Shown: in pieces, positions 4,819-64,000 of the stretch
Numbering within the stretch: position 1 is the stretch's first letter
Layout of the letters: each line of letters opens with the position of its first letter
Origin: an uncultured bacterium
GTDB taxonomy: Bacteria > Patescibacteriota > Minisyncoccia > UBA6257 > 2-01-FULL-56-20
Assembly (NCBI GenBank): GCA_963718575.1
Contig: OY970358.1
Location: forward strand, 322,172 to 386,171
Length of the DNA stretch: 64,000 bases
Reading direction: 5' to 3'
The notes under the pieces: model-generated
Told to the model about the DNA's origin: nothing
Seen by the model: the letters and a program-made list of their open reading frames with translations, nothing else
Database searches by the model: none
Program-made: the position numbers and the translations under genes

Positions 4819-4834
4819 AGGGAGGTCATTTCAA

Positions 4835-9309: not shown

Positions 9310-10392
9310 GTGATAAAATACGTCTATATGGAAATCGCGCTTCTCATCATCATAGCCATCCTCTTTGCCGCGATTGCGTGGCGGCTTTGGCGGCCGCAAG
9401 CGCCAGTGGAAAAGAAAGAAGACCCACAGTCGTTGCTGCTCCTCCAAAACCAGATCGCGGAGCTGAACCGAACAATCGAGGCCAAGCTCGGCGAGTCGGC
9501 AAAGGCCATCAATGATTCCACGAGCAAGGCGTTCACACAGGCCACGGAGAGCACGCGCCTCATTCGCGAGATCACGCAGGAGCTCGCAAAGGTGGGCGAG
9601 GGCCAGCGCCAGGTGGTGAGCATCGCGGACAATCTTAAGAATCTGCAGGATATTTTAAAGAATCCGAAACAGCGCGGCGTGCTCGGCGAATATTATTTGG
9701 AAACGGTTTTGAAAAATGTGCTTCCGCCGAACGCGTACCAGATGCAGTACCCTTTTAAGGATGGCACGATCGTGGACGCGGCCGTGATCACGAAAGACGG
9801 CATCATCCCGGTGGACTCAAAGTTCTCGCTTGAAAACTATAACCGCATTCTCGAATCGTCCGACAAGACCGAGCGCGAGCGCTTTGAAAACGCATTTGCA
9901 AACGACCTCAAGATCCGCATCGACGAGACATCGAAATATATAAAGCCGGAGGAAGGCACGCTCGGCTTTGCGTTCATGTTCATCCCGTCCGAGGCAGTCT
10001 ACTACGATCTGCTCGTCAACAAAGTCGGTGCCCTCAAGTCGAACAATGTCAACCTCATCGAATACGCGAGCGGCAAGAAGAAAGTGATCATCGTCTCCCC
10101 CACCACCTTCCACGCCTACCTGCTCACCGTTTTGCAGGGGCTCAAAGCCCTGCGCATCGAAGAGAGCGCCAAGAAGATCGGCGAGCGCGTGGGCGAACTC
10201 GGCAAACACTTGTTGAGCTACGAAGAATATTTTGGCAAAGTCGGCAAGAACCTGACGACCACCGTCTCCGCCTATAACTCCGCCGGCCGCGAATTTGGGA
10301 AGATCAATAAAGATATTTTGCGCATCACGGGCGAACAGCTTGAGCTCGAATCGCCGATTGTGGAGAAACCGGAGGAGATAGGAGGAGAATAG
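9310..10392 (+). CDS. rmuC: DNA recombination protein RmuC
   Basis: N-terminal TM helix plus coiled coil. RmuC-family core ...GFAFMFIPSEAVYYDLL...VIIVSPTTFHAYLLTV. Confidence 0.8.
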   Translation: MIKYVYMEIALLIIIAILFAAIAWRLWRPQAPVEKKEDPQSLLLLQNQIAELNRTIEAKLGESAKAINDSTSKAFTQATESTRLIREITQELAKVGEGQRQVVSIADNLKNLQDILKNPKQRGVLGEYYLETVLKNVLPPNAYQMQYPFKDGTIVDAAVITKDGIIPVDSKFSLENYNRILESSDKTERERFENAFANDLKIRIDETSKYIKPEEGTLGFAFMFIPSEAVYYDLLVNKVGALKSNNVNLIEYASGKKKVIIVSPTTFHAYLLTVLQGLKALRIEESAKKIGERVGELGKHLLSYEEYFGKVGKNLTTTVSAYNSAGREFGKINKDILRITGEQLELESPIVEKPEEIGGE

Positions 10393-46317: not shown

Positions 46318-46367
46318 AGTATTACATTATATTGTAATACTACCATATAATATAACAAGCGATATAC

Positions 46368-46583
46368 TTGTGGGTAATGAGAAGTGAAGCCTCAAAACTC
46401 GGCGAGAATTTAAAACGTATTAGAACAGCCAAGGGCATAACGCAAGGAGATATAGTCCGCAGGCTAAAAGTGGGGCGAGGATTTATCAGTAATATTGAGA
46501 ACGGAAAAGCCAACCCTACACTGTCGACGATTGCAAAAATAGCAAAAGCAATTGGAGTATCGGTCGGAGAATTGATGAAATAA
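46368..46583 (+). CDS. XRE-family HTH transcriptional regulator
   Basis: LKRIRTAKGITQGDIVRRLKVGRGFISNIENGKANPTLSTIAKIAKAIGVSVGEL. Confidence 0.85.
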   Translation: MWVMRSEASKLGENLKRIRTAKGITQGDIVRRLKVGRGFISNIENGKANPTLSTIAKIAKAIGVSVGELMK

Positions 46584-46591
46584 GTTCTAAA

Positions 46592-46999
46592 ATGACTAAG
46601 AATGGATTTATAAGAATCTGCAATGATAAAGAATTTTGGCGACAGATAAAACAGTCCTCCTATCCAGAGTTCGAGGATTATATTGCCAAACTATTTTTTA
46701 AATTAGGCTACAGATCAGAAGTGGTTGGCGGAGAAAATGACGGCGGCATCGATGTAGTTTTGTCGAAGGATGGCGTCCGATACTATGTTCAATGCAAAAG
46801 GTATAGGGGTGCCAGCGTATCTGCCGCCGAGGTGCGCGAATTTTATGGTGCATTGACGCACTATGGCACTAAGAGTGCGGGCTTCTTTGTTACAACCACC
46901 AAATTTAGCCAACAGGCAGAATCATTTGCCGAGGGGAAGCCAATTATATTGATCGACGGGCAGAAGTTGGTGGAATACGTTAGACGTGTCGAAAAGTGA
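46592..46999 (+). CDS. Stand-alone Mrr-cat-type restriction-endonuclease-fold protein (PD-(D/E)xK)
   Basis: FEDYIAKLFFKLGYRSEVVGGENDGGIDVVLSKDGVRYYVQCKRY... Confidence 0.7.
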   Translation: MTKNGFIRICNDKEFWRQIKQSSYPEFEDYIAKLFFKLGYRSEVVGGENDGGIDVVLSKDGVRYYVQCKRYRGASVSAAEVREFYGALTHYGTKSAGFFVTTTKFSQQAESFAEGKPIILIDGQKLVEYVRRVEK

Positions 47000-47331
47000 G
47001 CCACTACCACCTCTTAGCGCGCCCCAAAGGAGGGGTTGGGGGAGGAATTTGGGCGCGCCATACGCGAAGCCCCGAAGCCAGCAGGCTGAGGGGCTGAGCA
47101 CACCATCTCGGAGGGGGTCTAGCGGAGTGAAGTAGGACTTGTGATTTTCGGAGACGACCCTCAAAAAGATCAACAATATCAGGTCAATCCGGACTTGCCA
47201 CCCCTTCATTCCGAGCATACCCGAGTGAAGGGGTGAATGAAGGGGTAAACAGGTAGCCAATGTAGGGGTAAAATGGTTAGGTCTGACCCTCGAAGAACCC
47301 TCGAGCGGAGGTATATAACGCCACCACACTT

Positions 47332-48279
47332 TTATATCTCTATCCTCCACGCGCCATACGTTCCGCCGTCGGCGCCCCGTTGTGCTGCGCTAAATTTCTC
47401 CAAAAGCGTTTTCGTGATCGGCCCGGACGTGCCGCCGGCGATCGGTCGCTTGTCCACCGATAATATTGGAATGACGCGCGCGGAACTGCCGGAGAGAAAT
47501 GCCTCCTCGGCGATGTAGAGCTCCGTGCGATCCACCGCGCGCTCCTCTACCGGAATCCCCGCATCGCGTGCGATCGCGATCACGCTCGCACGCGTGATGC
47601 CTTCCAAAAGATCGGCGCTCACACTGGGCGTGATCAAAACGCCGTTCCGCACGATAAAGATATTCGACACTGTCCCCTCCGCGACGTGGCCGCTCGCGTC
47701 GAGCACGATCGCATCATCGTAGCCGTTCAAGATCGCTTCGTTCTTGATGAGCGAATTGTTGGCATAGCCGCCATTCACCTTCGCGCGCGGCGGGATCACG
47801 TTGTCACTGCCGTGCGTCCAGCTCGAGACGCACACGTTCACGCCCGCGCGCGGCAGGATCGCTCCCATCGGATAGATGTATGCGGAAAGCGCTTGCGGCA
47901 GGTCGTGGATCTTCGTTCCCGCGATGAGCGCGTCGACGAACACCGTGGCCCGCACGAGCACATCCTCGTTCCCGATGGCGTCGGCGTTCCGCGCGATCAA
48001 TTCGCGCATCGTCGCCTCGAACTTTTCATACGGCCACGCCGGTGCGAATTTATTGAAGTCCATGATCGCCGCGGAGTTCACTAGCCGCTTATAATGATCT
48101 TTCAATCGAAAGGCGTAGTGCTTTTTATCCGCCTCATTCCAGTTGACACTGAACACCGTGTAAATGCTTAGACCATAGAGCACCGGCGAACTCGCGATGC
48201 TCACATTCGCGGACGCGAACGGCACGAACGCATCGCGCATAAACGCCTGACCCTGCGTGTAATCAAACGGAGATGCCAT
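47332..48279 (-). CDS. Class IV aminotransferase (branched-chain/D-amino-acid aminotransferase family)
   Basis: Fold-type IV PLP pattern ...EGTVSNIFIVRNGVLITP... Confidence 0.75.
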   Translation of the reverse strand: MASPFDYTQGQAFMRDAFVPFASANVSIASSPVLYGLSIYTVFSVNWNEADKKHYAFRLKDHYKRLVNSAAIMDFNKFAPAWPYEKFEATMRELIARNADAIGNEDVLVRATVFVDALIAGTKIHDLPQALSAYIYPMGAILPRAGVNVCVSSWTHGSDNVIPPRAKVNGGYANNSLIKNEAILNGYDDAIVLDASGHVAEGTVSNIFIVRNGVLITPSVSADLLEGITRASVIAIARDAGIPVEERAVDRTELYIAEEAFLSGSSARVIPILSVDKRPIAGGTSGPITKTLLEKFSAAQRGADGGTYGAWRIEI

Positions 48280-49240: not shown

Positions 49241-49326
49241 TGGTACCCGGGGCCGGACTCGAACCGGCAAGACCTTACGGTCACGACATTTTAAGTGTCG
49301 CGCGTATACCATTCCGCCACCCGGGC
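49241..49326 (-). tRNA. tRNA-Leu (anticodon TAA), CCA encoded. Carries a G1·U72 wobble at the top of the acceptor stem.
   Basis: rc: GCCCGGGTGGCGGAATGGTATACGCGCGACACTTAAAATGTCGTGACCGTAAGGTCTTGCCGGTTCGAGTCCGGCCCCGGGTACCA. Confidence 0.8.
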
Positions 49327-49500
49327 TTTTCTCCGATTTCTGCCTCTATGAGTCGGCTTCAGACTGTGACAATTCGGGCAAAGAGCCCGCAAATTCTCAA
49401 TCCGATTATCATGCCTATCGCCATTAATGTGGTCGAGTTCTAAAGAAATCGGAAAGAATCCGACCATCGTCGGACTTTTTAGCCCATCCACACTCTTCAC
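49291..49500 (-). CDS. Small HNH endonuclease. The track ORF tail overlaps the tRNA-Leu(TAA) 5' end.
   Basis: ELDHINGDRHDNRIENLRALCPNCHS. Confidence 0.65.
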   Translation of the reverse strand: MKSVDGLKSPTMVGFFPISLELDHINGDRHDNRIENLRALCPNCHSLKPTHRGRNRRKARVAEWYTRDT

Positions 49501-51835: not shown

Positions 51836-51922
51836 GGAGACGTGGCCGAGTGGCTGAAGGCAGCATCCTGCTAAGATGTTAGGGGAGAAATCCCCTCGAA
51901 GGTTCGAATCCTTCCGTCTCCG
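51836..51922 (+). tRNA. tRNA-Ser (anticodon GCT)
   Basis: GGAGACGTGGCCGAGTGGCTGAAGGCAGCATCCTGCTAAGATGTTAGGGGAGAAATCCCCTCGAAGGTTCGAATCCTTCCGTCTCCG. Long variable arm. Confidence 0.85.
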
Positions 51923-52038
51923 CAGACAAGGCGATTGTATCGTAGCGATCGTCTTATATAGGTTTTTAGTGCGACCGACATATATGAGGGCACCAGGACG
52001 CCCGAACTTTTTGGTGTTAAAATGAAACTGCTACGCAT

Positions 52039-53073
52039 ATGAAATTAGATGATGTATACGCTGCAGCAGACAAATTGAGGCGATCTGCTGCAGCCATGCA
52101 AAAAGAAGCGAAAGCAGTAAAAACTGCTTGCTTGGATATCAACACATCGTGGAGCCAGTCGGCTCTCACTCGGCACGCAAAATTCTATTTCCGCAACTAT
52201 GAAGAGCCTCCCGCAACTAGTCGGTTCAATATTGAGTGGGGCCTAATTCATGGAATTCCCGACGGCTGGGAAGAAAGATCCAATGAAGAAGTTTGCCAAG
52301 AAATTGAAAAAAGGAGCGGAGCATCTCTCGATGATTTTAAAGAAAAAGTTACGAAGCTCGAAGACGAATTCGAGGCTTTAAAGCGAGACACTTCTCTTGT
52401 GCTGATAGAGGAAGGAATCGCGGACGTTTCGGAGATTGAGGGTTTTAAGTTTGAGAACGCAACGGATTATTTTAATACGTTAAATCCGACTACTTATATG
52501 ACGCGTGACAGTGCGGCCATCACCTCTGGAAGGTATATCGCACCCCACATTTATTTCGAGGCCGTCGCGATGTCAGCTCTAGGGATCGAAGGGCAGCTTG
52601 ATGAATTCATATATAAGATTAAAAAGCTCGGCGTAGGGACTGGCACTCCTCAAAAGAGCAACGATTTCTGGAATACGATCCACCCAGCGATAAGATCAGT
52701 TTCGGAAAAACAATTTAAGAATGGACATTATCTCGATGCCGTTCGTTCTGCGTTCATCGAATTCAATGATAAAGTAAAGCAAAAATACAAAAAAGACGCG
52801 GGTACAGAGGAAGATGGATTCAATTTAATGAAATTAGCTTTCGGCGACTTTTCAGCATCTAATTCAAGCTTCAACGGAACCGTGAAATACAGCCTGGCAG
52901 ATCTATCAACGGATTCAGGAAAGAATTTCCAAAAAGGTTTTTCGCTCATGTCGGCTGGAGCAGTTCTCGGCTTAAGAAATCCACGAGCCCATGCGAACGT
53001 TATGGACGAGAAGGACGAAGCTATTCACTTAATTTTTTTGGCAAGCTGGCTTATGAGAACTGCGTTTCCATAA
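52039..53073 (+). CDS. Two-domain protein: a novel N-terminal region plus a C-terminal HEPN-like domain (Rx4H: LRNPRAH), resembling the TIGR02391 'Abi C-terminal' family
   Basis: C-terminus ...FWNTIHP...NGHYLDAVRSAFIEFNDKV...FSLMSAGAVLGLRNPRAHANVMDEKDEAIHLIFLASWLMR. AT-rich. Confidence 0.55.
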   Translation: MKLDDVYAAADKLRRSAAAMQKEAKAVKTACLDINTSWSQSALTRHAKFYFRNYEEPPATSRFNIEWGLIHGIPDGWEERSNEEVCQEIEKRSGASLDDFKEKVTKLEDEFEALKRDTSLVLIEEGIADVSEIEGFKFENATDYFNTLNPTTYMTRDSAAITSGRYIAPHIYFEAVAMSALGIEGQLDEFIYKIKKLGVGTGTPQKSNDFWNTIHPAIRSVSEKQFKNGHYLDAVRSAFIEFNDKVKQKYKKDAGTEEDGFNLMKLAFGDFSASNSSFNGTVKYSLADLSTDSGKNFQKGFSLMSAGAVLGLRNPRAHANVMDEKDEAIHLIFLASWLMRTAFP

Positions 53074-53179
53074 TTGATATCTGATAACCCTCAGGATTGG
53101 TTTTTTGATGCTCTCTGGCGTAAGATGAAGTTATTAAAAAATCATTAAAAAACAGGGGTATTCTAGCCTCCGTTCAACC

Positions 53180-54250
53180 ATGGCTGTCTCTATTAAAAAT
53201 ATCAATAAGTACGTGCAGGCCATAGCCCAAAGCGGACTCACTATTTATGATCCCATCGAAATCGGCGATCCGAATCTTTGGATTCCATCTCAAGAACTCG
53301 AAGTCCTACTGAATCAAAAACTCAAGGGTATATCTCTCGACGGACTGCCTCTCCGGACGCGATCCAAAGTCGTTAAACAAAAAGTTTGCGAATCTCTTGG
53401 CTATCCCACGCCGGAAACTTTCGAGAAAACACAGCCGCGCTTTCCGGGCCAATGTTTCGACACCTATATTCAAAAATCAAACAATCTACAGATATGGAAT
53501 GAGGAATTATCACCCACAAGAAGGTACGTCCTTATTAAGGTAAGCGAAAAAGATTTGATTGAAAAAGTTCGAGTGGTAAGCGGAGACACGCTTGCCGTCC
53601 TTGATACCACGGGAACCCTCACCCAGAAGTATCAGGCGAGACTTATTGTCGGCCAAAAGATTTCCGAATTGATATCATCGTCAGATACGAGCCGCGTTAA
53701 AGAAATCACCAATGGCTTCGATGAGAAAAAGGTAAACTTGGCCGATCCTACTGATCATGCCGATGGCGAAAATCTTTTACCGATTAAACTTATTCATGAA
53801 CGACTCTCGAAAATTATTGGGAAGACTTTCTCGGATTCAGGCCATGACCAAGAAAGAAATCGCGGAGGTTTCTTACATAAGTTAGTCTGCGAATCCCTTG
53901 GCTATAAAACCTACCATGATAATGGACAGTTTCCTGATGTACCAAATCAGCTTTTAGAGATCAAATTGCAGACCTCGCCAACGATTGATTTAGGACTCGT
54001 GAACCCTGACAGCAAAACTGCTTTGGATACGCCAAAGATCAATGGAAAACAGATACGGCATTGCGATGTTAGGTATGCACTTTTTTATGCCAAAATCGCC
54101 AACAAGCATGTAACGATAACAAATTTTTTCCTCGTCACCGGAGAAGAATTCTTTTCCCGATTCCCGAGATTTGAGGGAAAGATTATTAACAAAAAGATTC
54201 AGATACCCTTACCCGCCGATTTCTTCGAGTTCAATCCGAAAGCCATATAG
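53180..54250 (+). CDS. Candidate restriction endonuclease of the MutH/Sau3AI-like PD-(D/E)xK type with an internal domain duplication
   Basis: D-x6-E-x-K motif (PDVPNQLLEIKLQ) in the C-terminal half. Repeated VCESLGY(P/K)T modules at about aa 70 and about aa 245. Convergent with, and overlapping, the methyltransferase gene. Confidence 0.5.
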   Translation: MAVSIKNINKYVQAIAQSGLTIYDPIEIGDPNLWIPSQELEVLLNQKLKGISLDGLPLRTRSKVVKQKVCESLGYPTPETFEKTQPRFPGQCFDTYIQKSNNLQIWNEELSPTRRYVLIKVSEKDLIEKVRVVSGDTLAVLDTTGTLTQKYQARLIVGQKISELISSSDTSRVKEITNGFDEKKVNLADPTDHADGENLLPIKLIHERLSKIIGKTFSDSGHDQERNRGGFLHKLVCESLGYKTYHDNGQFPDVPNQLLEIKLQTSPTIDLGLVNPDSKTALDTPKINGKQIRHCDVRYALFYAKIANKHVTITNFFLVTGEEFFSRFPRFEGKIINKKIQIPLPADFFEFNPKAI

Positions 54251-55917
54251 ACCCGCGAATTTAATTTCGCCTCAAGATCGTTTGTTTTTGCGCTGGGCGA
54301 GATTTTATACATTTGCCTTGCAATAACAACAATCTCTTTTGAGATTTTTAGATCGGGATTCGGCAACGGAAAATTCTCAACATATTGAGTAATGAAACGA
54401 CGCCGGCCTGAATATAGCTTGTTATTAAAGCTATGATCATAAAATTCTTCGATGAAGCTTGAGTTGGCGACTGCCAAGGCTAGCCAAAGTAAATCAGATT
54501 CTTTTTTATCGCTCAACGAAAGCCAGTAGCAATCGCCATTCACGACGCTCCCGCTTAGGTCCATCCAGAACACTGGCTTTTCCGAGATGTCCCGAAAAAC
54601 GAGCTTGGGCTGCTTCCAGGCATCAGGGTTATGAGGAACCCATATCTCAAACCAGTTGCGATTCGACTCTGCAATATAAGTCCTACTTGCGAGCTGTTTT
54701 TTATGGGACTCGAGATATTTTTTAACGATGGGAAATTTCGCAAGATCAATTGCCTTCCTTACCCCATCTTTTACCTCGTGTGGATAAATCACATACTTGA
54801 TCGGCTCATTGGCCTTAAAACGCCTAGCTACATGATGTGTAATTAATGGCTGCAGGATTTCGGGCAACCGTCCCGAAAATTTTTCCATATCTGCATCGGA
54901 GAGAATAAAAACGTTGTCGGCAGTTGTTTTTATGCCAACCCTTATCTTTCCGATATCCTTAAATGTCAGCTTCGTTTTTGATCTCACTTGCTCGAGCCAA
55001 TCGTCAGCTTGCTGAGTCGCCAATCTCCAGACATCGCCATGTTTCTTTCCATGATCCAAGGTTCCGTGGAGCACCTTAAATAAATCGCCATCGCTTTTCG
55101 CCAGAGCATTGAAGACTAAAGTAGGATTGGGATTTTTAGTTCCTTCCTGAAGATAAATTGAGGTAAATTTTGGCTGGTGAACCTCATCTGGCATGCCTTT
55201 TGCTTTCTCAAGTAATAAAACTGCCGGAAGTACGGCTGCTTCAAACAAGCGGGTGTCACCGAAATCCCAAACATGTAAAATATTAAAACTGGACAATAAA
55301 TTTTTCCTCACCGTAACCCCCGATTTCGTTGTCAAAAATCGGTTCGACACTATGATGCCTAAAATCCCATTTGATTTTAAAATCTTTTCGATGCCCTTAA
55401 GGAACGCATGATAAAGATCTACCCTCCCGGAAAGGTTGAATTGTTTTGCTAATCGCTTTGCCTTTTCAGATCCCATTACCTGGGTTCTTACGTAGGGAGG
55501 GTTTGCAATAACAATATCGAATCGCGAAGCTTCAGTCGCTGGCGAGAATAGTGATTCATTATAGAAGTCTAGAACCCACTCCAGAAAATCTCGCTTCTCG
55601 ATCCTCAGAGAAGTCGAAGGAAAATTCTCACTAATTAACTTTTGTGAGGCATTTACAGCATCCTGACTGATATCACAGCCGAATACCTCTAGATTGTTAA
55701 GGTTTCTATCATGCGCGAGCTTAATCAAACTAAGCAAAAGCTCTCCGTCGCCTACCGCAGGATCAATTATTCTAATCTTGTGCTTTTTATCCAAGATCCT
55801 TGTTTCCAACTGATCCAAAATTTGAGCTGCGACAAAGTCCGCTAAGGAAGTCGGCGTGTAATGAGCCCCCGTATCCTTTCTTAACTGCATATCAAATTGT
55901 GTATCCAAATTTGGCAT
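54199..55917 (-). CDS. N6-adenine DNA methyltransferase (gamma-class, Eco57I/TaqI-like) with a C-terminal target-recognition region
   Basis: TGAHYTP (motif X). IIDPAVGDGELL (motif I). IVIANPPY (motif IV). 572 aa. Confidence 0.85.
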   Translation of the reverse strand: MPNLDTQFDMQLRKDTGAHYTPTSLADFVAAQILDQLETRILDKKHKIRIIDPAVGDGELLLSLIKLAHDRNLNNLEVFGCDISQDAVNASQKLISENFPSTSLRIEKRDFLEWVLDFYNESLFSPATEASRFDIVIANPPYVRTQVMGSEKAKRLAKQFNLSGRVDLYHAFLKGIEKILKSNGILGIIVSNRFLTTKSGVTVRKNLLSSFNILHVWDFGDTRLFEAAVLPAVLLLEKAKGMPDEVHQPKFTSIYLQEGTKNPNPTLVFNALAKSDGDLFKVLHGTLDHGKKHGDVWRLATQQADDWLEQVRSKTKLTFKDIGKIRVGIKTTADNVFILSDADMEKFSGRLPEILQPLITHHVARRFKANEPIKYVIYPHEVKDGVRKAIDLAKFPIVKKYLESHKKQLASRTYIAESNRNWFEIWVPHNPDAWKQPKLVFRDISEKPVFWMDLSGSVVNGDCYWLSLSDKKESDLLWLALAVANSSFIEEFYDHSFNNKLYSGRRRFITQYVENFPLPNPDLKISKEIVVIARQMYKISPSAKTNDLEAKLNSRVYMAFGLNSKKSAGKGI

Positions 55918-55920
55918 TGT

Positions 55921-57285
55921 TTATTCAATCTTACTCTGATTTTTCTGGGTCTCCAAGTTGTCTTTAATGATTTTTTTATCTTTGAATAAAAGCCTGCTTT
56001 TTATGGCCCCCAGCAGCTCTCGTTTCTCAACTATACTTCCTTCACGCAATAAATATTTAGCGTAAATTCGGAGATCGACATCTTGGACTGCTGCCTTGAT
56101 TCCCTGCATTCCGAGAATCCCTTTTTGAAATTTATTGAATCGTTGGACTTCTTCCTCGAATTTGTGCCGCATTCCTATTTCGCTAATATCAAGCTTGTCC
56201 ATGATTTTCACAAGCTGCTCGATTATATCTTCTTCACGCATGTATCCCGCCTTACAGTTCTTATCCCGTGCCCGACTACAGCCATAATAAACGTACCGAG
56301 CCGTCGTGCCATCTTTATGCCTCTTATACTTTTCCTCCGCACTCACACCCGATCCACAAAGGCCACACGTCATCAGCTTTGTGAATGCGAACTCCTTAAT
56401 CTCCGAACGCACGATCTGATCACGCTTCAGCTGCGCCTGTACTTTATCGAACAGTTCCTTGGTAATTAGCGGCTGATGCTTACCGTCATACCACATGCCA
56501 CTCTTTTCTGGATATTCGAATCGTCCGTAATAAAAGTGGTTCTGGAGCGTGATATAAATATTCCCCAGCGAAAGATGGTGATTACTCTTGGTTCGGAAAT
56601 TTAGGTCGAACCGCAGCCAGTGATAAACTTTCCGGCCAGACCAATGTTCATTTGCCACCTTCTCAAAAATTTTCTTTATGATATGTCCGCGTTCGGGGTC
56701 AACGAGCACTTGGCATTTCCGATCCATCCTCTTCTCGTTAAGATATCCAGTGGGCGCAACGCCCGGCCGCAACCCCATTTCACATCGCGTCCGTAATCCG
56801 CGTCGCACGTTTACGCCGCGATTATCGTTTTCTAATTTCGCCTGCGAACCAAGAATCATAAGCAGGAACTTTTCGTTCGGCGAATTACTGAATCGCTGGC
56901 CGTACGTCCGGATATCGACGAGGAGTTGCTCATCCATAAGATCGACGAGCTTCCCCAAATCTCCGGCGTTCCTGCTCAACCTGTCTGCCGCCCACGTCAT
57001 AATGCCGTTGAACTTTCCGGCGCGGATATCGTTAATAATCTCATTGAACACCGGACGCTGGCCTGTCGCTTTAGCCGAATGGCTCTCGCGACGAATCTCG
57101 ACGACTTCCAACTCTTCGCGTTCGGCGAGCTGAAGCATCTCTTTCACCTGCGAATCGATCGATAGAATCTGGCGCTCCTCCGATTCGGTGCTCTTCCTTG
57201 CATACAAGAGGTATTTGACCTTTACTTGGGTCGGGATTTTTGTGGGGGCTCCCGTCCCGCTTGCCCCCATTGTTTGGGTAGTCAT
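55921..57285 (-). CDS. Large serine recombinase (second copy). Its stop lies 3 nt upstream of the methyltransferase start, in the same orientation.
   Basis: YARKSTESEERQILSIDSQ...WAADRLSRN. Recombinase domain. C-terminal Cys ribbon (CGLCGSG...C). Confidence 0.85.
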   Translation of the reverse strand: MTTQTMGASGTGAPTKIPTQVKVKYLLYARKSTESEERQILSIDSQVKEMLQLAEREELEVVEIRRESHSAKATGQRPVFNEIINDIRAGKFNGIMTWAADRLSRNAGDLGKLVDLMDEQLLVDIRTYGQRFSNSPNEKFLLMILGSQAKLENDNRGVNVRRGLRTRCEMGLRPGVAPTGYLNEKRMDRKCQVLVDPERGHIIKKIFEKVANEHWSGRKVYHWLRFDLNFRTKSNHHLSLGNIYITLQNHFYYGRFEYPEKSGMWYDGKHQPLITKELFDKVQAQLKRDQIVRSEIKEFAFTKLMTCGLCGSGVSAEEKYKRHKDGTTARYVYYGCSRARDKNCKAGYMREEDIIEQLVKIMDKLDISEIGMRHKFEEEVQRFNKFQKGILGMQGIKAAVQDVDLRIYAKYLLREGSIVEKRELLGAIKSRLLFKDKKIIKDNLETQKNQSKIE

Positions 57286-57356
57286 ACCTCAATGGATGAC
57301 GCAATGGCGGCAGGAGTCCAGAGCGACCGAAAAGCCCTTAAGGGCTCCTTATCTCC

Positions 57357-57857
57357 TTACGGCAACGAAGCAATGGGTGACGATGTAATCCTTTCGAAAG
57401 CCTTGGAAAATATTTCTCGCTGCCTGTCTATTTCCGGCTGATTTATCTCTGCGATTTTTTCTCCTTCCTTATATTTTCCAAACTCTCTTTCATAATCTCT
57501 CGTTGCGCGACCATCAAGGTGAACAATCGAATTACGAATTAAAAAAATTTCTCGAATCGCGGGGTCATAACACTTTCTTAGCACCTTTTCGGAGCGGTCT
57601 TGAAAGCAAATTTTATGGCGCGCCGGATCAGCTGTTTTAAGATCGCGTACGAATTTCTCCCAAGCCATGCAAAACATTATCGGTATGGACTGGCGAAGGT
57701 ATGCCGCGTACAGCGGAGTGGATCTTGGCCGCGAAGCAGACATGGAATCGCCTTGAGCCAGGTCAGCACTATTAACAATGTCAGCCGATAACGTCGAATC
57801 GACTTTCTCATAATACTCGCGGATACTATCGAGCTCTTCCGAAAACGAGTACGCCAT
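57357..57857 (-). CDS. Hypothetical protein (166 aa) with a HEPN-like Rx4H motif (RNSIVH)
   Basis: ...IREIFLIRNSIVHLDGRATRDYE... Start overlaps the stop of the upstream gene (operon). Confidence 0.4.
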   Translation of the reverse strand: MAYSFSEELDSIREYYEKVDSTLSADIVNSADLAQGDSMSASRPRSTPLYAAYLRQSIPIMFCMAWEKFVRDLKTADPARHKICFQDRSEKVLRKCYDPAIREIFLIRNSIVHLDGRATRDYEREFGKYKEGEKIAEINQPEIDRQREIFSKAFERITSSPIASLP

Positions 57858-59173
57858 TAGAGATTCGGGGGCAAATTGGAGTTCGGGTACCCCCTCTTAA
57901 TCCTCTCGTAGATAGCGGCCGCAGGTGCTTCGAGTTCTTTCCTCCGATCTTCCGGAGCGAGCTTATACGAAGCAAAGATTCTTGGCCAGTCTCCCACATA
58001 AGCTCCGAGGTAAGTTATTTTTTCGACATGAGTTAGTATGTCGATGAGGCTATCTGGGGCAACCTCAGCAATTTTCTCGACGATCTCCTGAATTCCGTTG
58101 AGCCATACGCGCCTCTCTTTTTCAAGATGCGACATCCCACCTTCTAAATATTCCAGCATCTGCCTTGTGAACTGCACGCCGTCTCCCGGCGCTATCCGTA
58201 GAACGGCTTCGACTAAAAATTCAAATTGGCCGACAGGCTCGTATTGGAATTTTCCTTCAAAAAATAAGGGGATATATTTTTTGAACAGTTCATAATTTTC
58301 TCCATTTTCTTCGAGCTGCTTCCATGTTATCCAAATGAGGGTAGTCTTGAGTCGAGGTGCCTGCGGAACATCCGAACTTGAATCTTTGATAAGCTTTTTC
58401 AAAAAATCTCTGAACCATTCTCCGTGAAAAGCAGCATCGAATTTCGGCCTATATTCCGCAAAGAAAAGAGCGTACGGCGTGGCGTGCTCCGTGAGATAGT
58501 CAGGACGAAGGACCCCGCTTGCGTCATAAAAAATCGTGCTCAATAGTTCCTGAGCCTGCGCTTCGGTGAGAGTGATTCTCGGCTTATCGAATACGCCCAC
58601 CACGCTTTCTAAAACGCGGGGATATTTAGTATTATCCCGGAGCATCTTCCACGCGAGAGCCACGGCCCGGGATTTATCGGCATCGGTAAATCCAAATGGC
58701 GTGCCATCTTTGTTCTGCTTGGCATACATATTGATGGTCAAGCCAGAAAGAGCTGCGGGCACTTGCTGGCGAACGTATAGCGATTCATCGCTAGCAAGCT
58801 CTTCGAGGACACTTAATACCCGTTGGTAATATTCTGTTTTAAACGTAGCTACGATTTTTTGAAGCAACCAGGGCACGCTTCCCCGTATGGTGTAGATATT
58901 ATTGATGTCTTCTCCTTTTTCAATTTTTTCGTTGAGATTGTCAAAACCCGGCACAGGATCTGGATCGCGTGCGTAAAGTTCGGCAACCCTTAACGCCTTT
59001 TCCACGAACTGTCCCTCTTGAACCAAATCGGCAAGAATCCAAATTATGTCGAACTTGCTATATTCCTTTTCCAAAAGATTCTCCCAATCGGGATCCTCTA
59101 GCTCCCTTAGAATTCTCTTTTTTAAAATATCTCGGTAGGTCATTACCCTGATGTTACTCCAGAGAGCATGCAA
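57857..59173 (-). CDS. Hypothetical all-helical protein (438 aa), first gene of a two-gene operon
   Basis: No recognisable catalytic motif. Helical repeat-like composition. Confidence 0.45.
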   Translation of the reverse strand: MHALWSNIRVMTYRDILKKRILRELEDPDWENLLEKEYSKFDIIWILADLVQEGQFVEKALRVAELYARDPDPVPGFDNLNEKIEKGEDINNIYTIRGSVPWLLQKIVATFKTEYYQRVLSVLEELASDESLYVRQQVPAALSGLTINMYAKQNKDGTPFGFTDADKSRAVALAWKMLRDNTKYPRVLESVVGVFDKPRITLTEAQAQELLSTIFYDASGVLRPDYLTEHATPYALFFAEYRPKFDAAFHGEWFRDFLKKLIKDSSSDVPQAPRLKTTLIWITWKQLEENGENYELFKKYIPLFFEGKFQYEPVGQFEFLVEAVLRIAPGDGVQFTRQMLEYLEGGMSHLEKERRVWLNGIQEIVEKIAEVAPDSLIDILTHVEKITYLGAYVGDWPRIFASYKLAPEDRRKELEAPAAAIYERIKRGYPNSNLPPNL

Positions 59174-59252: not shown

Positions 59253-59921
59253 CTATTCGAATGCCGGATTCACATAGTCGAGATCCCACACGCCCGGCAG
59301 GATCTGCAGTTCGAGCGTCGCTTTATCGAGGCTCCAGTTGATCTGCGATGCGTCGTCTGTCGTAAGCGTCGCCCGGTACACCATGCCGTCGCTCGTGTTC
59401 CCGTACTTGTCGGTGAGGGGAAGATATCCCGTTACCGTCGCGGTTTCTATCTTCTGGCCGCTCGTATAGACGGCGATGAAAACATCGGCGGTTTCCGATT
59501 CAAGGCCGTCCTTCGTCAGACCGTTCGACAGATTATTGTCGCCGTTGAATTCTACAGTAACGTCCCATCCGCCTTTTACTGCGGGATCCGGTTCGACATC
59601 AACGCTCCTCAGCTTCGGCTCGTTGCTTTGGTTCGTCTGCCCCTGTAGGACGTTCCCCACGATCGCCTTGATCTGCGAAGCGGGATCCTGCGGAACGTTA
59701 TTCGCAACAGTCGTCGGCGCGGTGGTCTGAGGCGCCGTTGTTTGATTGGGCGTTATCCCTATTCCGATTGCAAAGAGGATGAATCCACCGAGTCCGAACG
59801 TCAGCGCGATTTTCGTCCGCGTATTCTCCTTAAAGAGCTTCTTGAGCGGCTCCGGTCTGATCAACGCACCGATCGTGAAGAGCATCGAGATAATTCCCAC
59901 TGTTCCTAATAATGCTCCCAT
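59253..59921 (-). CDS. Membrane-anchored hypothetical protein (222 aa)
   Basis: Two N-terminal TM helices. Extracytoplasmic Thr/Asn-rich region. Confidence 0.45.
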   Translation of the reverse strand: MGALLGTVGIISMLFTIGALIRPEPLKKLFKENTRTKIALTFGLGGFILFAIGIGITPNQTTAPQTTAPTTVANNVPQDPASQIKAIVGNVLQGQTNQSNEPKLRSVDVEPDPAVKGGWDVTVEFNGDNNLSNGLTKDGLESETADVFIAVYTSGQKIETATVTGYLPLTDKYGNTSDGMVYRATLTTDDASQINWSLDKATLELQILPGVWDLDYVNPAFE

Positions 59922-60005
59922 GTTATTTCTCTTTATGGTTGTATTCGACCTTTCAACACAATGAATGACGCGAATACTCGATCAAGTCCAGAGCTTCCAA
60001 ATTTC

Positions 60006-60887
60006 TCACAAACCTTGGCGATACAGCTCGTCCAAGGTCTTGCCATCAGCCGTTTTCCACGTCATCCATCCGTTCGTGGAATAACCGAGAATAAGGTCGC
60101 CCGCCGCACTCGGCGTCGTAAAACTGTAATCACGGGCGAAGGCATATCCATCGCCGCTTTTTTCGACGATACCTTCTGCTAAAAGTTTCGCGATAAGCTT
60201 TTCATTCCGTTCGGCAACCGCAGGTGATTGCTTTCCGCTGATCGTCGATCCTTGGTAGACGATAAATCCCTCATTCGTCATCCGGGCGGTACCTTTCGCG
60301 GTGACGTCTTTGTTCTGAACCATAAACAGCGGATTCTCGTGATCGGCAACCGCTTTCGCTTCGAGCTTCTGGAGTATCGGGTAGCCGACCGTGCCGAGAA
60401 GTAATCCGATATTTTTTACGAATTCCTCCATCACGGGAATATCGGCCTGCGGGAGGTGCGGAATGAGCGATCCCGTGCTGTTCTTAAGCACATAACCGAA
60501 ATGCTTCGCCTCGTTTGCAATCTCGACGCAGCGCGATTCGAGATATTTCACATGCGCCTTCGTCAGGCTCTCGTCGCTTGAGACGAACGCGATGGTGGTA
60601 TACCAAAAATCCTTGCCTTTGTCGTTGTTGTGCGTCGTCAATCTGTCAAAAAGATTTTCCGCTTCGCCGATATAGGCGGATGCGACGAGGTTTTCTTCGA
60701 ATTCGCGGCCAAACAAAAAATACACCGCTGGCTGTCGCGCGACGTCATCGCTACCCATCTCCTTCAATTTGTTGCGGGGGAAAATGAGGCCTTGCCCGGT
60801 CCAGCCCGCGAGCGAGATTATTTTCCTTCCGTCCGGTTCGCCGTCGACCAGAAATAGTGTAATTTTCTTTCCTGAATTTTGAGCCAT
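60006..60887 (-). CDS. GIY-YIG nuclease-domain protein with a C-terminal DUF4357-like region
   Basis: PAVYFLFG...AYIGEAENLFDRLTTH (GIY-YIG). C-terminal GYSTNGWMTWKTADGKTLDELYR. Confidence 0.65.
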   Translation of the reverse strand: MAQNSGKKITLFLVDGEPDGRKIISLAGWTGQGLIFPRNKLKEMGSDDVARQPAVYFLFGREFEENLVASAYIGEAENLFDRLTTHNNDKGKDFWYTTIAFVSSDESLTKAHVKYLESRCVEIANEAKHFGYVLKNSTGSLIPHLPQADIPVMEEFVKNIGLLLGTVGYPILQKLEAKAVADHENPLFMVQNKDVTAKGTARMTNEGFIVYQGSTISGKQSPAVAERNEKLIAKLLAEGIVEKSGDGYAFARDYSFTTPSAAGDLILGYSTNGWMTWKTADGKTLDELYRQGL

Positions 60888-61145
60888 GGCGATTGAGCAA
60901 TTTCATCGCCGACCCGAAGTTCTTAGAAACTCTGAACCCCGTGCCAGCTAGGTCTTGCGACCCCATACCAGTTTCCCGATATGGCCCGATAAAGAGTTGC
61001 TGAACGCGGGGTTCAGAATTCTTTATCGGGGCTTTGGTCCATATCTCCGCTGGAAGCGGAGGGTTAGGCTGGGATTAACCCTATGAAATTGTTGAATTTA
61101 TCATAATCCGTCGGGCAGAATTACACAAACACACACTGAATATCT

Positions 61146-63323
61146 TCATGACCACTTTACGCCATAATAACGATCCTCAATTAATCCCTCATCAATGAAG
61201 CTACGAACTAGGAGTGTAAAACTGTCCGCTTCATCGTCATGAGATTCCACTCCCAGCCCGATCATCTGCGCAATAAGCGTTTCCGCTCCATGCTTGGGGA
61301 ATAGGATGACCCCTGCGTTCATGAGATCGGCGCACGACGCAAGGCGGGAGCGTTTGTCGGTCGTGACCGTCACGCCCTCGACTTTGTAAATGCGGTCGAA
61401 TTTCAGCTGGTCGACGGCCGCTTGCTGGAATTGGACTGTCTCGACGCGGATCTTCGCATCTCGCCATGCGTTACGGAGCGAATAATAACGTTCCTTTATC
61501 TTCGCTATGATTTCGGGGAACGTGAGCCGCTCATTTACGATACTCGGCAATACGTAGGCTTTAAAGTTTTTGCCCGTTCCCTGCGTCACGATGCTCACCA
61601 TGGCGGTGTAGTCGTTCGTCTCCTTCTGTCCGATCGCGAGATCGACGCCGAGGTATGCGGTGATATGCCCTTGATCCGGAGAAGGCAATTTGTCGTAATA
61701 CCGGATCATGTCCCGCGTGACCACCTGATCTTCTTCGGGAACGATCTTCAGCATGAATTCCCGCAGGAATGCGTTCTTGTTTCCTATCTCCCGCTTTTGC
61801 GCTTCAATTGCCGCTTCGGTCGGATATTTATTCGGCCACGCGACCGTGCCGTTCTTGTCTATAAACGGATAGGCCTTGAATACGCCATCAATCGCGCCGC
61901 TGCTTACCTCGCGCTTCAAGCGCATCAAAAGCGAGTCTTCATGGAGCAGGTTGCCCACGATGACGAGGCGCGTTTTCCCGAATTCTCCCGCGCCGATCAC
62001 ATCGAGCTTCAGCCAGCGGTACACTTTGTCGCGGCCTTCCTTCGTTTTCACGGAAGCGGTTGATTCGACATCGTCGCAGATGATGAGATCCGGACGATAT
62101 TTGCCGTGATGGATGCCCCTAATCTTCGATTCAACCGACATCACGAGAATCCGCGCGTTGAAATTCTTGAACACAATGGTATACGCGCCCCATTCCGGGC
62201 TATCATCTTCAAACGGACCCAAGTCATTTTTAAGGAGTTCATCGTCCTCAAGCTTCTGCTTGATGGCATCCATCTGCAGCTTCGCCTGCGGAAGGGTATC
62301 GCAAATGATAACGACGAATTTCTTTTGCGGTTTTCCCATAATCGACCATAACGGAAGCGCCGTCGTGAAGATGGTCGACTTGCCCGATCCGCGGAATGAG
62401 ACGATAAAAAGCTTATGCAGCTCTTCCTGCCCGATCAGGCGAAACATCTCGCGGTGAAATGCCGCCGTGTCGTATTCCACGGCATCCGCAAAATAGAGAT
62501 GGAAGAAAGCGTAGGGACTCTCGCTGCACACGGCCGCGCGGACGCTCCGATCGGTCATAATCTGTTCGAAAAGCTCCGGCGGCATCGCCTCCGTTGCGTA
62601 GGCATCGGGATCGGGAAGCTCCATCTCTTCGTTCTCCGGCAACGCGGCATCATCGCCAACCTCCGCAGCCGCATCTCCTTCGGGAACAACGGGCGACCAG
62701 CCATATGGCTCAATGGAGCCGTTCGAGACATAGGGTTCGGCTATCGCGGGGTCGAGGTCGAAGATATCTTCCTCCGTAAACGATCCGACGATTACCGTAA
62801 GTTCTCCCGTGTTTACCACGCATCTCTTGAACCCTTCGAGATGGACGCGCGGTTCGCCCGGCGGCGGCACGTATGCCTTGATCTTGCCATCGAAAAAAAG
62901 CCTTCCGATATCGCTGCTAGGACCAATATCGACGATATCTCCCCACGTAACGGTTTTCTCGATATCCACATCGCGCGTTGCCTTATATCGCCTGGTTCCT
63001 TCCAGAGGGTCATACGCGGGCGGATACGGCTCTAAGAATTTTCTGTCGACGTATGTCTTGGCGACAGTCGGATCGAGTGTGACGATCTGCCCTTTCTCAA
63101 AATATGGTGATGGCCGAGGAATTCTGTTAAGGATGATCCACCTTCTTTCGCCGCGCGGTTCGCCCGGAGGAGGCACGTACTCCTTTATAACGCCGCGGGC
63201 GAGATACGGCTGGGCTTCCATTACGCCGAGCGAGATAATCTCTCCCTCCTGGTAGTACTCCTGGATGCACATCGGGATCAGTACTTTATATGTTTGCGAT
63301 TCTGCCATGGGCGTGGTTATCAT
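61146..63323 (-). CDS. Phage terminase large subunit-like protein (ATPase plus RNase-H-like nuclease) with an N-terminal duplicated module of about 250 aa
   Basis: Walker A FRGSGKST. Walker B DLIICDDVE. Nuclease segment YLGVDLAIGQKETNDYTAMV. Repeats ...YVPPPGEPR... appear twice. The start is set at the ATGA overlap with the small-subunit gene. Confidence 0.7.
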   Translation of the reverse strand: MITTPMAESQTYKVLIPMCIQEYYQEGEIISLGVMEAQPYLARGVIKEYVPPPGEPRGERRWIILNRIPRPSPYFEKGQIVTLDPTVAKTYVDRKFLEPYPPAYDPLEGTRRYKATRDVDIEKTVTWGDIVDIGPSSDIGRLFFDGKIKAYVPPPGEPRVHLEGFKRCVVNTGELTVIVGSFTEEDIFDLDPAIAEPYVSNGSIEPYGWSPVVPEGDAAAEVGDDAALPENEEMELPDPDAYATEAMPPELFEQIMTDRSVRAAVCSESPYAFFHLYFADAVEYDTAAFHREMFRLIGQEELHKLFIVSFRGSGKSTIFTTALPLWSIMGKPQKKFVVIICDTLPQAKLQMDAIKQKLEDDELLKNDLGPFEDDSPEWGAYTIVFKNFNARILVMSVESKIRGIHHGKYRPDLIICDDVESTASVKTKEGRDKVYRWLKLDVIGAGEFGKTRLVIVGNLLHEDSLLMRLKREVSSGAIDGVFKAYPFIDKNGTVAWPNKYPTEAAIEAQKREIGNKNAFLREFMLKIVPEEDQVVTRDMIRYYDKLPSPDQGHITAYLGVDLAIGQKETNDYTAMVSIVTQGTGKNFKAYVLPSIVNERLTFPEIIAKIKERYYSLRNAWRDAKIRVETVQFQQAAVDQLKFDRIYKVEGVTVTTDKRSRLASCADLMNAGVILFPKHGAETLIAQMIGLGVESHDDEADSFTLLVRSFIDEGLIEDRYYGVKWS

Positions 63324-63724
63324 TCGGTCGGCGTGGGCGTTCCGTCCTTTGGAAGCAATGCTGCATGCTGGAGCGCCTTGCGGACGATCTCTTGCTGCTC
63401 GGGCGTGAGAGACTCTTTTTTCTCGATGCGTGCGGTGATGTCGAGCGTGTTTTTGAATTTCGGATGCCGGCGCGACAGCCAAAACGCTATGGATTGCCAG
63501 TGTTTGTCTTTTATGAGCGAGATGAGTTGCGCTTCTCCTAAATCATTTAGGATTGCTTCGCCCTCGCCGAGCGCCTCATCCACCGCTTTATCGAATGCCG
63601 GATCGGCCTTCCGCCAGTTATGAATGCTCACACGCGAGATATCCAATTTTTCGCAAGCGACTTGGATGATAGGGGCTTTGCGAAGCTGCTCAATAAACAA
63701 TTTTTGGATGCGCTGTTTTTTCAT
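63320..63724 (-). CDS. Terminase small subunit-like HTH protein
   Basis: IQVACEKLDISRVSIHNWRKADPAFDKAVDEA. Directly upstream of, and overlapping, the large-subunit start. Confidence 0.5.
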   Translation of the reverse strand: MKKQRIQKLFIEQLRKAPIIQVACEKLDISRVSIHNWRKADPAFDKAVDEALGEGEAILNDLGEAQLISLIKDKHWQSIAFWLSRRHPKFKNTLDITARIEKKESLTPEQQEIVRKALQHAALLPKDGTPTPTE

Positions 63725-64000
63725 AATGTTACGCGTTCCGCTTTAAGGTTAAAGAGAGCCTCCATCCTTTGTATGATGGTGGCACAATATTCGGCATCGC
63801 GTTCGACCATGATCGCGATGCGCTTTGTCTGCTCGCAGCTTACGCCAAGCGTTCCCGACCCCGTGAACCCGTCATAGACGAGATCGCCGATATCCGTGCT
63901 GTTCAATATCAAGCGGCGGATGAGCGGTATCGGCTTTTGGGTTGGGTGAAGTGGGCTGCTGCTGGGGCGCGGACAGTAAAGCAATGTTTTATCTTTCGCC
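63721..64000 (-). CDS. DNA methyltransferase (N4/N6, PF01555-like), C-terminal part. The gene continues beyond the window.
   Basis: HPTQKPIPLIRRLILNSTDIGDLVYDGFTGSGTLG. Confidence 0.7.
   Translation of the reverse strand, partial: AKDKTLLYCPRPSSSPLHPTQKPIPLIRRLILNSTDIGDLVYDGFTGSGTLGVSCEQTKRIAIMVERDAEYCATIIQRMEALFNLKAERVTL

Follow-up and report, generated by a model that had tools for sequence, protein, structure and literature searches.

Defence genes as probable cargo of a tRNA-associated serine integrase in a patescibacterial genome

Introduction

What kind of unit is formed by genes for a HEPN protein, a restriction endonuclease, a DNA methyltransferase and a large serine recombinase that lie side by side after a tRNA gene? 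The question is raised by a stretch of 64,000 nucleotides (the window) from an uncultured member of the Patescibacteria, which belong to the candidate phyla radiation (CPR; contig OY970358.1, positions 322,172 to 386,171 of the forward strand). Here the four genes, which we call A, B, C and D in the order given above, adjoin a tRNA-Ser(gct) gene (Table 1). An earlier note on this DNA left three readings side by side, namely a Type II restriction-modification (R-M) system with an accessory HEPN gene, a recombinase-mobilised defence cassette, or a single multi-gene system. Our analysis makes it likely that A-D are a mosaic of three independent modules occupying a variable cargo slot, situated at the integrase end of a phage-like integrative element that is inserted at the 3' end of tRNA-Ser(gct). 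This reading is carried by the gene content of the locus, the family membership of each protein, the independent distribution of the modules, the variability of the slot among relatives and an identical block at a second tRNA-Ser gene.

Results

Copies of the block at other tRNA-Ser genes

The segment from 51901, inside the tRNA-Ser(gct) gene, to 57341 contains all four genes and was found again at other positions. Protein A has an exact copy on eight contigs, among which L082 and L083 (loci are cited by such numbers) represent the window's own locus. In L084, the segment is present at 100% identity over its 5,441 bp beside a tRNA-Ser(tga) gene, and both flanks are without homology to the window. 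In L081, it stands at 84.5% identity beside tRNA-Ser(gga), with its right edge at the same base. The four genes are kept together throughout L081-L085. Since the block recurs with 100% identity beside another tRNA-Ser gene, A-D do travel together, but only recently.

The copy in L084 has altered the tRNA gene next to which it lies. This tRNA-Ser(tga) gene (9799-9885) is a hybrid with a native 5' half, while its last 23 nt are those of the tRNA-Ser(gct) gene in the window. The 5' acceptor strand GGAGGGG is placed opposite the block-borne CGTCTCC, and G·G and T·T mismatches are found in the acceptor stem and the T stem, respectively. Because the tRNA is a mismatched hybrid, its last 23 nt can be said to have moved with the cassette, which seems to have carried a tRNA end from one isoacceptor gene to another.

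Movement is also apparent from a second pair of loci, L156 and L157. A unit of 10.0 kb, 99.2% identical between the two, adjoins a tRNA-Ser(gga) gene in one of them and a tRNA-Ser(gct) gene in the other. Along with the recombinase, it encodes a ParB-methyltransferase, a 152-aa protein and a terminase and contains 5.4 kb of cargo, and the tRNA 3' end is native in each of the two loci. Conversely, tRNA-Ser(gct) is found without the island in L189 and L190, whose IF-2 is 91% and 87% identical to that of the window; homology to the window stops there at 51923/51924, and this comparison with empty sites fixed the left border of the island. Presence or absence at an element edge, as expected of the work of an integrase, is seen at the empty sites, in L084 and in L156/L157, and hence at more than one site. 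The recombinase-mobilised defence cassette considered in the earlier note is thereby borne out, both by the copies of 51901-57341 at other tRNA-Ser genes and by relatives that carry other defence cargo in the same slot.

A recombinase family linked to tRNA genes

Profile searches (Pfam, PADLOC, NCBIfam), which the earlier note had suggested, placed A, B, C and D in known families. D contains the domains PF00239 (Resolvase), PF07508 (Recombinase) and PF13408 (Zn_ribbon_recom), all above their cut-offs, together with the catalytic motif YARKST at residue 28, and it matches the phrog_95 integrase family (E 4e-60). By these matches, D is predicted to be the integrase of a phage-like element family in Patescibacteria and would catalyse the movement of the block.

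At least 393 relatives of D are present in metagenomes, in addition to five viral contigs in IMG/VR, and we surveyed 85 of these loci (80 metagenome loci and the five IMG/VR contigs). A downstream tRNA gene is found in 47 of the 85 (33 Ser, 6 Gln, 5 Trp and 3 Asp), the tRNA-Ser types being gct, tga, gga and cga. The first downstream tRNA lies on the opposite strand in 47/47, so that the 3' ends of the tRNA and the recombinase face each other, and an upstream tRNA was found in 0/85. A TerL homologue is encoded upstream of the recombinase in 35/85.

An ordinary chromosomal R-M system standing by chance beside an unrelated, possibly dead integrase, with no link to mobility, could be expected where an R-M family is as widespread as this one and integrases are common near tRNA genes. 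We nevertheless consider such a coincidence very improbable. R-M, HEPN and integrase genes share one 100%-identical, sharp-edged block at a second locus, the island is missing from close relatives, and D is intact, with three domains and its catalytic motif.

The variable slot between integrase and tRNA

Across the D-family loci, the distance from the integrase stop codon to the tRNA ranges from 95 bp to 9.3 kb. The open reading frames (ORFs) in this gap encode Type I, II and III methyltransferases, Mrr nucleases, ResIII helicases, AbiEii-like ATPases and Pycsar cyclases, as well as PDC-S02, MADS components, a PARIS AriA-like protein and some products unrelated to defence. At the same chromosomal site, L097 is the closest relative; its recombinase is 93% identical to D, and tRNA-Ser(gct), Leu and Cys genes are near. 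Its gap is filled by a Type III Mod-Res pair and a gene for a 236-aa protein, and the Mod start overlaps the recombinase stop. The earlier note had described the arrangement of D and C as operon-like. The 3-nt gap agrees with this, but given the overlapping Mod junction in L097, such a layout is a property of the slot and is not specific to C.

Nucleotide homology between the window and these relatives is limited to two stretches, 51836-51982 (the tRNA and about 60 nt) and D with the 56 nt upstream of it (to 57337-57341), and this limitation reveals a conserved frame around exchangeable cargo. The roughly 60 nt next to the tRNA are conserved downstream of the tRNA in integrase-family loci and absent at the empty sites L189 and L190; they are probably one arm of the integrase attachment site, plus a terminator. 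At the opposite end, the outer edge at 57341 falls in the window within the palindrome AGCCCTT/AAGGGCT (the slash marks the edge). Arguments from half-site symmetry and a 5-bp spacing for attachment-site (att) arms were dropped as over-interpretation, and a promoter and terminator scan of the block gave sites no more numerous than in shuffled sequence.

Layout and composition

All four genes are intact in the six-frame ORF list for the window, at the positions in the earlier note, whose description of their arrangement was accurate throughout. A starts 115 bp after the end of tRNA-Ser(gct) (about 120 bp had been estimated) and is followed on the same strand, after a gap of 106 bp, by B. The convergent genes B and C share 52 bp (estimated at about 50), and C and D have the same orientation, only 3 nt separating the end of D from the beginning of C.

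The block is AT-rich, as had been noticed, with a GC content of 42.6% in A-C and 47.7% in D against 52.9% in the whole window (54.5% in bases 1-44700). The accompanying estimate of a backbone at about 58% GC was too high, the actual value being nearer 53-55%, and 57.7% is reached only by the IF-2 gene. GC at third codon positions (GC3) splits the cluster, with 0.43 for A, 0.45 for B and 0.45 for C against 0.56 for D, 0.63 for the TerL gene and 0.71 for the IF-2 gene. This split is a first sign that D and A-C have differing histories, and the lower values of A-C point to their more recent acquisition.

If A-D were instead one new defence system, the recombinase would act in defence, for example by switching or DNA rearrangement, and would not be an integrase. 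The 3-nt and 52-bp junctions and the co-inheritance of the four genes in L081-L085 would suit this idea. It is already contradicted by the distribution data, which leave it scarcely any probability: none of A, B and C is encoded in the 85 loci examined from the large D family, a 93%-identical D is joined by an overlapping junction to a Type III Mod gene, and the R-M pair occurs elsewhere without a recombinase. Moreover, D differs in composition from A-C, and inverted repeats or an invertible segment were not identified. The single multi-gene system of the earlier note accordingly finds no support, as the families concerned are well populated and routinely found apart, and the cluster is conserved only among near-identical copies.

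An autonomous restriction-modification pair

C carries the Pfam domains Eco57I, N6_Mtase and TaqI_C and matches the PADLOC MTase_II profile PDLC03226 over its full length (E 5e-198), with motif I (DPAVGDG) at residue 52 preceding the catalytic motif IV (NPPY) at residue 139. B matches the PADLOC Type II endonuclease profile (REase_II) PDLC03565 over its whole length (E 1e-147); a Pfam search gave no match for B, and PDB sequence searches gave none for A or B. The MutH-type D-x6-E-x-K motif reported earlier for B is present as D253-x6-E260-x-K262 and invariant in 50 homologues, which gives B the active site of a PD-(D/E)XK nuclease.

The duplicated domain that had been proposed for B was recovered as well. 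Its N- and C-terminal halves align with 15/42 identities (E 7e-5), and in the predicted fold one helix-plus-strands pattern occurs twice. The catalytic triad is found only in the C-terminal half, with R87, D94 and Y96 at the matching positions of the N-terminal half. Having lost its catalytic residues, the N-terminal lobe probably serves in DNA binding or regulation. Two tandem nuclease-like lobes in one chain, here with the catalytic residues in the C-terminal lobe, are an arrangement of the Sau3AI type, while no specific similarity to MutH or Sau3AI beyond that to other PD-(D/E)XK enzymes was detected. The earlier label 'MutH/Sau3AI-like' consequently applies to the general PD-(D/E)XK fold and not to family membership.

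Homologues of B number 4,041 at 60-79% identity and come from many phyla. For a survey of their context, 80 loci with B relatives were sampled from the 385 species having a match and searched with all window proteins. Endonuclease and methyltransferase genes are convergent and abutting in 80/80 of these loci, and A is encoded in 0/80. A recombinase match was obtained in 4/80, and the only close one lies in L002, a Saccharibacteria contig, where the recombinase gene is divergent from the methyltransferase gene and a helicase gene stands between the recombinase and tRNA-Ser. A Pfam scan of the flanking ORFs in 78 loci revealed a small Cro/C1-type HTH protein (24 flanking ORFs) as the sole recurrent neighbour, with neither Ymh nor any other HEPN family among the recurrent neighbours. 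Proteins of the Cro/C1 type are the usual controllers of Type II systems. As separate but paired genes for an endonuclease and a methyltransferase, B and C show the hallmark of Type II R-M, and their families and distribution indicate that they are a widespread, autonomous pair of this type.

Among the closest known counterparts is an HTH-R-M homologue on the megaplasmid of Shewanella oneidensis MR-1 (NC_004349.1, 2651-5650), whose endonuclease is 57% identical to B. This two-gene Type IIP system has the same families, the same convergent layout and the same Eco57I/N6_Mtase/TaqI_C and NPPY signature; the copy in the window differs in having no HTH controller gene, the HEPN gene occupying that position. 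The only sites reported as methylated in strain MR-1 are GATC, the target of Dam, and ATCGAT (PMC12838424; bioRxiv 10.1101/2023.11.13.566931). Since MR-1 combines this homologue with methylation of only these two sites, ATCGAT is a candidate recognition site for B and C. The GATC specificity mentioned in the earlier note is thus unsupported, as the sole experimental lead points by inference to ATCGAT. The observed/expected ratio of ATCGAT is 0.65 in R-M-bearing loci, in which many palindromes are equally depleted, and 1.06 in the window (30 sites).

A self-contained HEPN protein

Residues 213-340 of A form a Ymh-family HEPN domain, which matches Pfam Hypoth_Ymh (PF09509, E 6e-21, 75 bits against a cut-off of 25) and TIGR02391 (49.7 bits against 39.45). 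Inside this match, at residues 313-318, lies the Rx4H motif RNPRAH, which is kept as RNPR[AT]H in 6/6 full-length Ymh-bearing homologues. The protein had been described correctly as ending in an Rx4H HEPN-like module. Residues 1-205 (window 52039-52653) are matched by no Pfam model, AbiJ_NTD and AbiTii included, and a Pfam scan of A did not find an ATPase domain.

Close relatives of A are few (n=13). Three homologues with readable context (67%, 45% and 44% identity) are surrounded by unrelated genes, with no R-M or recombinase gene nearby. In the close family, a conserved N-terminal domain of about 200 aa is followed by either a Ymh-HEPN domain or an unrelated one. An exhaustive search with this N-domain returned 350 representative clusters, and the domain is N-terminal in nearly every listed protein. 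Among the 102 of these clusters for which C-terminal domains were counted, we found DpnII/MboI restriction endonucleases (17), CAP12/Pycsar TIR domains (16), Ymh (8), other TIR domains (3), PNP of the phosphorylase superfamily (2) and the HEPN family DUF4145 (1). Such swapping of C-terminal effectors suggests that A is a self-contained sensor-plus-effector conflict protein, and its unnamed N-domain is a candidate infection sensor or adaptor of single-protein defence systems. Fusions of AbiJ-NTD and AbiTii to Ymh have been described (Anantharaman et al. 2013, PMC3710099). A resembles these proteins in its C-terminal Ymh HEPN domain, its Rx4H motif and an N-domain that recombines with TIR, restriction endonuclease and other domains; it is distinguished from them by that N-domain, which corresponds to neither of the two models.

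Alternatively, A might be dedicated to backing up the R-M system, like PrrC/RloC, as a HEPN RNase that is restrained by the R-M proteins and fires when a phage inhibits restriction, so that A-B-C would be one system. The arrangement of the genes would suit this idea, with A close upstream of B on the same strand, at the position of the controller gene in other members of this R-M family and with a common low GC3 of 0.43-0.45. The Ymh HEPN family has furthermore been listed as 'in operon with R-M' (Anantharaman et al. 2013, PMC3710099), and A, B and C occur together in L081 at 84.5% nucleotide identity. We still regard this coupling as unlikely in view of the R-M survey, in which neither A nor Ymh accompanies the pair, and of the homologues of A that stand apart from any R-M genes. 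The N-domain of A is joined to many alternative effectors, as in self-contained sensor-effector proteins. Compared with PrrC and RloC, which A resembles as a HEPN protein adjoining an R-M system, it is without an ATPase domain (ABC or GHKL), without an R-M-interacting domain of the PrrC/RloC or paraMORC kind and without conserved R-M linkage. The suggestion of a Type II R-M system with an accessory HEPN gene was therefore right in content, and a dedicated partnership is unsupported. Conservation of the neighbourhood likewise gave a divided answer, the four genes being together in L081-L085 and absent as a unit from the 80 R-M loci and the 85 D-family loci.

Extent of the element

All genes to the right of D lie on the same strand as D (Table 1). 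The nearest of them form a second variable slot, which in L081 holds a different 4.4-kb segment: the genes for the 166-aa and 438-aa proteins are replaced by those for a 168-aa protein, a Dsr1-like 989-aa protein and AbiGi. Homology to L081 resumes at 59254-61106, in the genes for the 222-aa and DUF4357 proteins, and the TerL gene is also kept. The LOOT RNA is located downstream of the TerL gene, between it and the DUF4357/PDC-S14 gene. The phage-like backbone runs past the end of the window and continues in L086.

Table 1. Features of the tRNA-Ser(gct) locus, with positions in the window.
Feature	Position	Strand	Details
tRNA-Ser(gct)	51836..51923	+	attachment landmark; ARAGORN and Rfam tRNA; last 23 nt (51901-51923) within the shared block
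Travelling block, 5,441 bp	51901..57341		tRNA 3' end, HEPN gene, restriction endonuclease, methyltransferase, integrase, 56 nt
Element-borne ~60 nt next to tRNA	51924..51982	+	TATCG ... GCGACCGA motifs
A, HEPN protein, 344 aa	52039..53073	+	PF09509, TIGR02391
B, Type II restriction endonuclease, 356 aa	53180..54250	+	two PD-(D/E)XK-like lobes
C, gamma-class N6-adenine DNA methyltransferase, 572 aa	54199..55917	-	Pfam, PADLOC, motifs
D, large serine recombinase, 454 aa	55921..57285	-	Pfam, phrog_95
56-nt region upstream of integrase	57286..57341	-	conserved ..CTCTGGACTCC..TTGCGTCATCC..ATG; homology to relatives ends at outer edge
Second variable slot	57357..59173	-	166-aa protein (weak RiboL-PSP HEPN match, E 0.003) and 438-aa protein, family unassigned
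222-aa membrane protein and 293-aa DUF4357/PDC-S14 candidate defence protein	59253..60887	-	PADLOC PDC-S14 E 1e-91; phrog_12629, phrog_8263; both common to L081
LOOT RNA (Rfam RF03000)	60950..61070	-	71.6 bits vs gathering score 46.4, full length
Phage-like backbone: TerL, small-subunit-like protein, DNA methyltransferase start	61146..64000	-	phrog_38 E 2.5e-71, phrog_4044, phrog_4102

For the mobile unit, a size of 5.4 kb or one of at least about 15 kb can be proposed. The smaller unit is favoured by the dyad at the junction and by the edge at 57341, which is sharp and recurrent. Evidence for the larger one comes from L081, from the unit common to L156 and L157 and from the frequency with which a terminase gene is the neighbour; it would include the second slot between terminase and integrase.

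Taken at the smaller size, 51901-57341 might be a complete, autonomous mini-element, in which the integrase and two half-sites carry the R-M and HEPN genes, and the terminase island would be a separate, older occupant of the site. The block in L084 is fully identical and flanked by unrelated sequence on both sides, as would be expected of such a unit, and the right edge at 57337-57341 recurs in L081, L097, L099, L102, L103 and L105. In L097, the upstream neighbour of the integrase is a Rep protein with another recombinase, and not a terminase. The junction in the window lies at the centre of a dyad, AAGCCCTT/AAGGGCTC (the slash marks the junction), as the site of a serine integrase would have, and a second small recombinase island is present at tRNA-Leu(caa) in the same window. 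Several of these points are offset by others. The L084 contig ends 744 bp past the block, so that homology could resume beyond it, as it does in L081 at 59254, and the dyad is weak in L084 and L081. The unit that moved in L156/L157 takes in the methyltransferase and terminase genes, 3.3 kb upstream of the integrase; a terminase homologue is found upstream of the integrase at the frequency given above, which exceeds chance; and L081 retains the 222-aa, DUF4357 and TerL genes by the block at a different tRNA-Ser. On balance, we hold a self-sufficient mini-element to be possible but doubtful.

The larger phage-like element with a cargo slot, which we prefer, also has evidence weighing against it. 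The position of the crossover looks inconsistent, since the last 23 nt of the tRNA are element-borne in L084 and native in L156/L157. An excised circle or attP junction (…GCCCTTAA/GGTTCGAATCC…) had no match in viral contigs, and a displaced tRNA 3' end at 57342 is not significant (p 0.15-0.23). The far end was not located; over about 22 kb to the right, there is no recurrence of the sequence that follows the tRNA at empty sites. Capsid, portal and tail genes were not seen from 57342 to about 10 kb past the window. The genes recognised there are those for TerS, TerL and DNA methyltransferases only, which falls short of an intact prophage, and the label 'phage-like' derives from the terminase genes and the five IMG/VR contigs. 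Finally, A and the R-M genes may be co-transcribed and functionally coupled, given their common strand, the 106 bp between A and B and their similar composition.

In the 10-kb unit of L156/L157, only methyltransferase, terminase, integrase and small ORFs were recognised. Comparison with empty sites leaves the right border unfixed, since the relatives show no conserved synteny past the tRNA. A second copy of the tRNA 3' end was not found in the window or 10 kb beyond it at up to 5 mismatches, and among the relatives such repeats are shown only by L172 and L150/L151. The T-arm 13-mer GGTTCGAATCCTT has two extra exact copies, one direct and one inverted, in L086 (6405-6417 and 1688-1700), and the site upstream of the integrase (GGGCGACCTCAAAGCCCTTAA) has an 18/21 inverted copy there at 1098-1118. 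These copies lie outside the window, at about 3.3-8.6 kb from its right end, with a chance expectation of about 6e-4 for each 13-mer and about 3.5e-4 for the 18/21 match. They may be far ends of the element or pseudo-sites, and they fit a simple att site poorly.

Other insertions near the locus

The window holds another insertion at 44840-47446, beside tRNA-Leu(caa) (44752-44837). A second large serine recombinase gene (44737-46317, minus strand; 526 aa, 34% identical to D) overlaps with its 3' end the 3' part of this tRNA gene and is followed by genes for an HTH protein and an Mrr-type nuclease (Mrr_cat ORF 46592-46999, plus strand). The 2.6-kb segment at tRNA-Leu(caa) is missing from L189 and L190, which have other short genes there, and the geometry of this island matches that of the tRNA-Ser element. 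Between the two sites, a 69-aa ORF on the minus strand (49291-49500) contains a clear HNH nuclease motif (DHINGDRHDNRIENLRALCPNCH) and runs into tRNA-Leu(taa) (49241-49326); this ORF may be what is left of a homing endonuclease or some other inserted element.

Related loci provide two further observations. Directly upstream of the 93%-identical integrase in L097, positions 2373-4750 encode a rolling-circle/pSAM2-type Rep and a 518-aa large serine recombinase, and this second integrative unit suggests that elements have accumulated in tandem at the same tRNA-Ser. In L087, just past the right end of the window, a 133-bp repeat pair with 88% identity (4286-4418 and 4817-4949) adjoins a bAvd-family gene and ORFs of 388 aa and 302 aa. 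The two copies resemble the template repeat and variable repeat of a diversity-generating retroelement.

Discussion

A working model for the locus can be outlined as follows. D would insert a small element that carries terminase genes at tRNA-Ser 3' ends, and A-C would be recently acquired cargo between the integrase and the attachment arm that moves along with the integrase. C is predicted to methylate adenine in its recognition site, which would leave unmethylated incoming DNA to be cut by B through D253, E260 and K262 in the C-terminal lobe. By analogy with its family, A might sense infection through its N-terminal sensor or adaptor domain, which would control the Ymh-HEPN RNase and thereby bring about RNA cleavage and cell arrest. 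Transcription of C is probably gained from the integrase gene across the 3-nt gap, and no functional dependence among the modules is needed.

Each part of this arrangement is of a known kind, and a slot for defence cargo on an integrative element is a known theme. Variable cargo beside an integrase or an attachment site forms defence-gene hotspots in prophages, satellites and integrative elements. The locus resembles such hotspots in that an attachment arm and an integrase frame a slot that changes among close relatives (Type II R-M with HEPN, Type III R-M, helicase, Pycsar). It departs from them in that the frame is provided by a serine and not a tyrosine integrase, on a small element in which terminase genes but no structural genes were seen. 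D shares its Resolvase, Recombinase and zinc-ribbon domains, as well as its position at the edge of an element, with the phiC31, Bxb1 and A118 integrases and with the Ccr recombinases of SCCmec, and SCCmec likewise delivers its cargo to the 3' end of a conserved housekeeping gene. Unlike these phage integrases and Ccr proteins, the D family would target tRNA 3' ends, and its host is a CPR bacterium. The identification of D as a Ccr protein was tried and rejected (NCBIfam CcrB, 131.5 bits against a cut-off of 900).

The serine integrase beside tRNA genes is a more unusual point than the cluster itself, and it falls outside what the earlier note had claimed. Use of tRNA genes by serine integrases was predicted in 14 of 297 cases, as a previously unreported behaviour in need of proof (Mageeney et al. 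2020, PMC7192596). Our survey inclines us, with little more than even confidence, to the view that a clade of large serine integrases, observed so far in CPR bacteria and their phage-like elements, attaches specifically at tRNA 3' ends, mainly at those of tRNA-Ser of any isoacceptor. Such integrases would move small elements that bear terminase genes and have, between integrase and tRNA, a slot into which defence genes can be plugged.

Collectively, these results keep the cluster off lists of new multi-gene defence systems. They turn attention to the N-domain of A, whose recombination with TIR, DpnII/MboI nuclease, HEPN and phosphorylase domains makes it worth testing as a sensor. The locus offers a clean and dated case of the transfer of defence genes from one tRNA-Ser locus to another, with an identical copy at a second gene and a copy of 84.5% identity at a third. 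It comes from ultra-small CPR bacteria, a group in which little is known of phage defence and mobile elements. If the proposed specificity of the integrase clade is true, it would give tRNA targeting by serine integrases its first well-supported example and would constitute a main route by which CRISPR-poor CPR bacteria swap R-M, HEPN, Pycsar and other defence modules.

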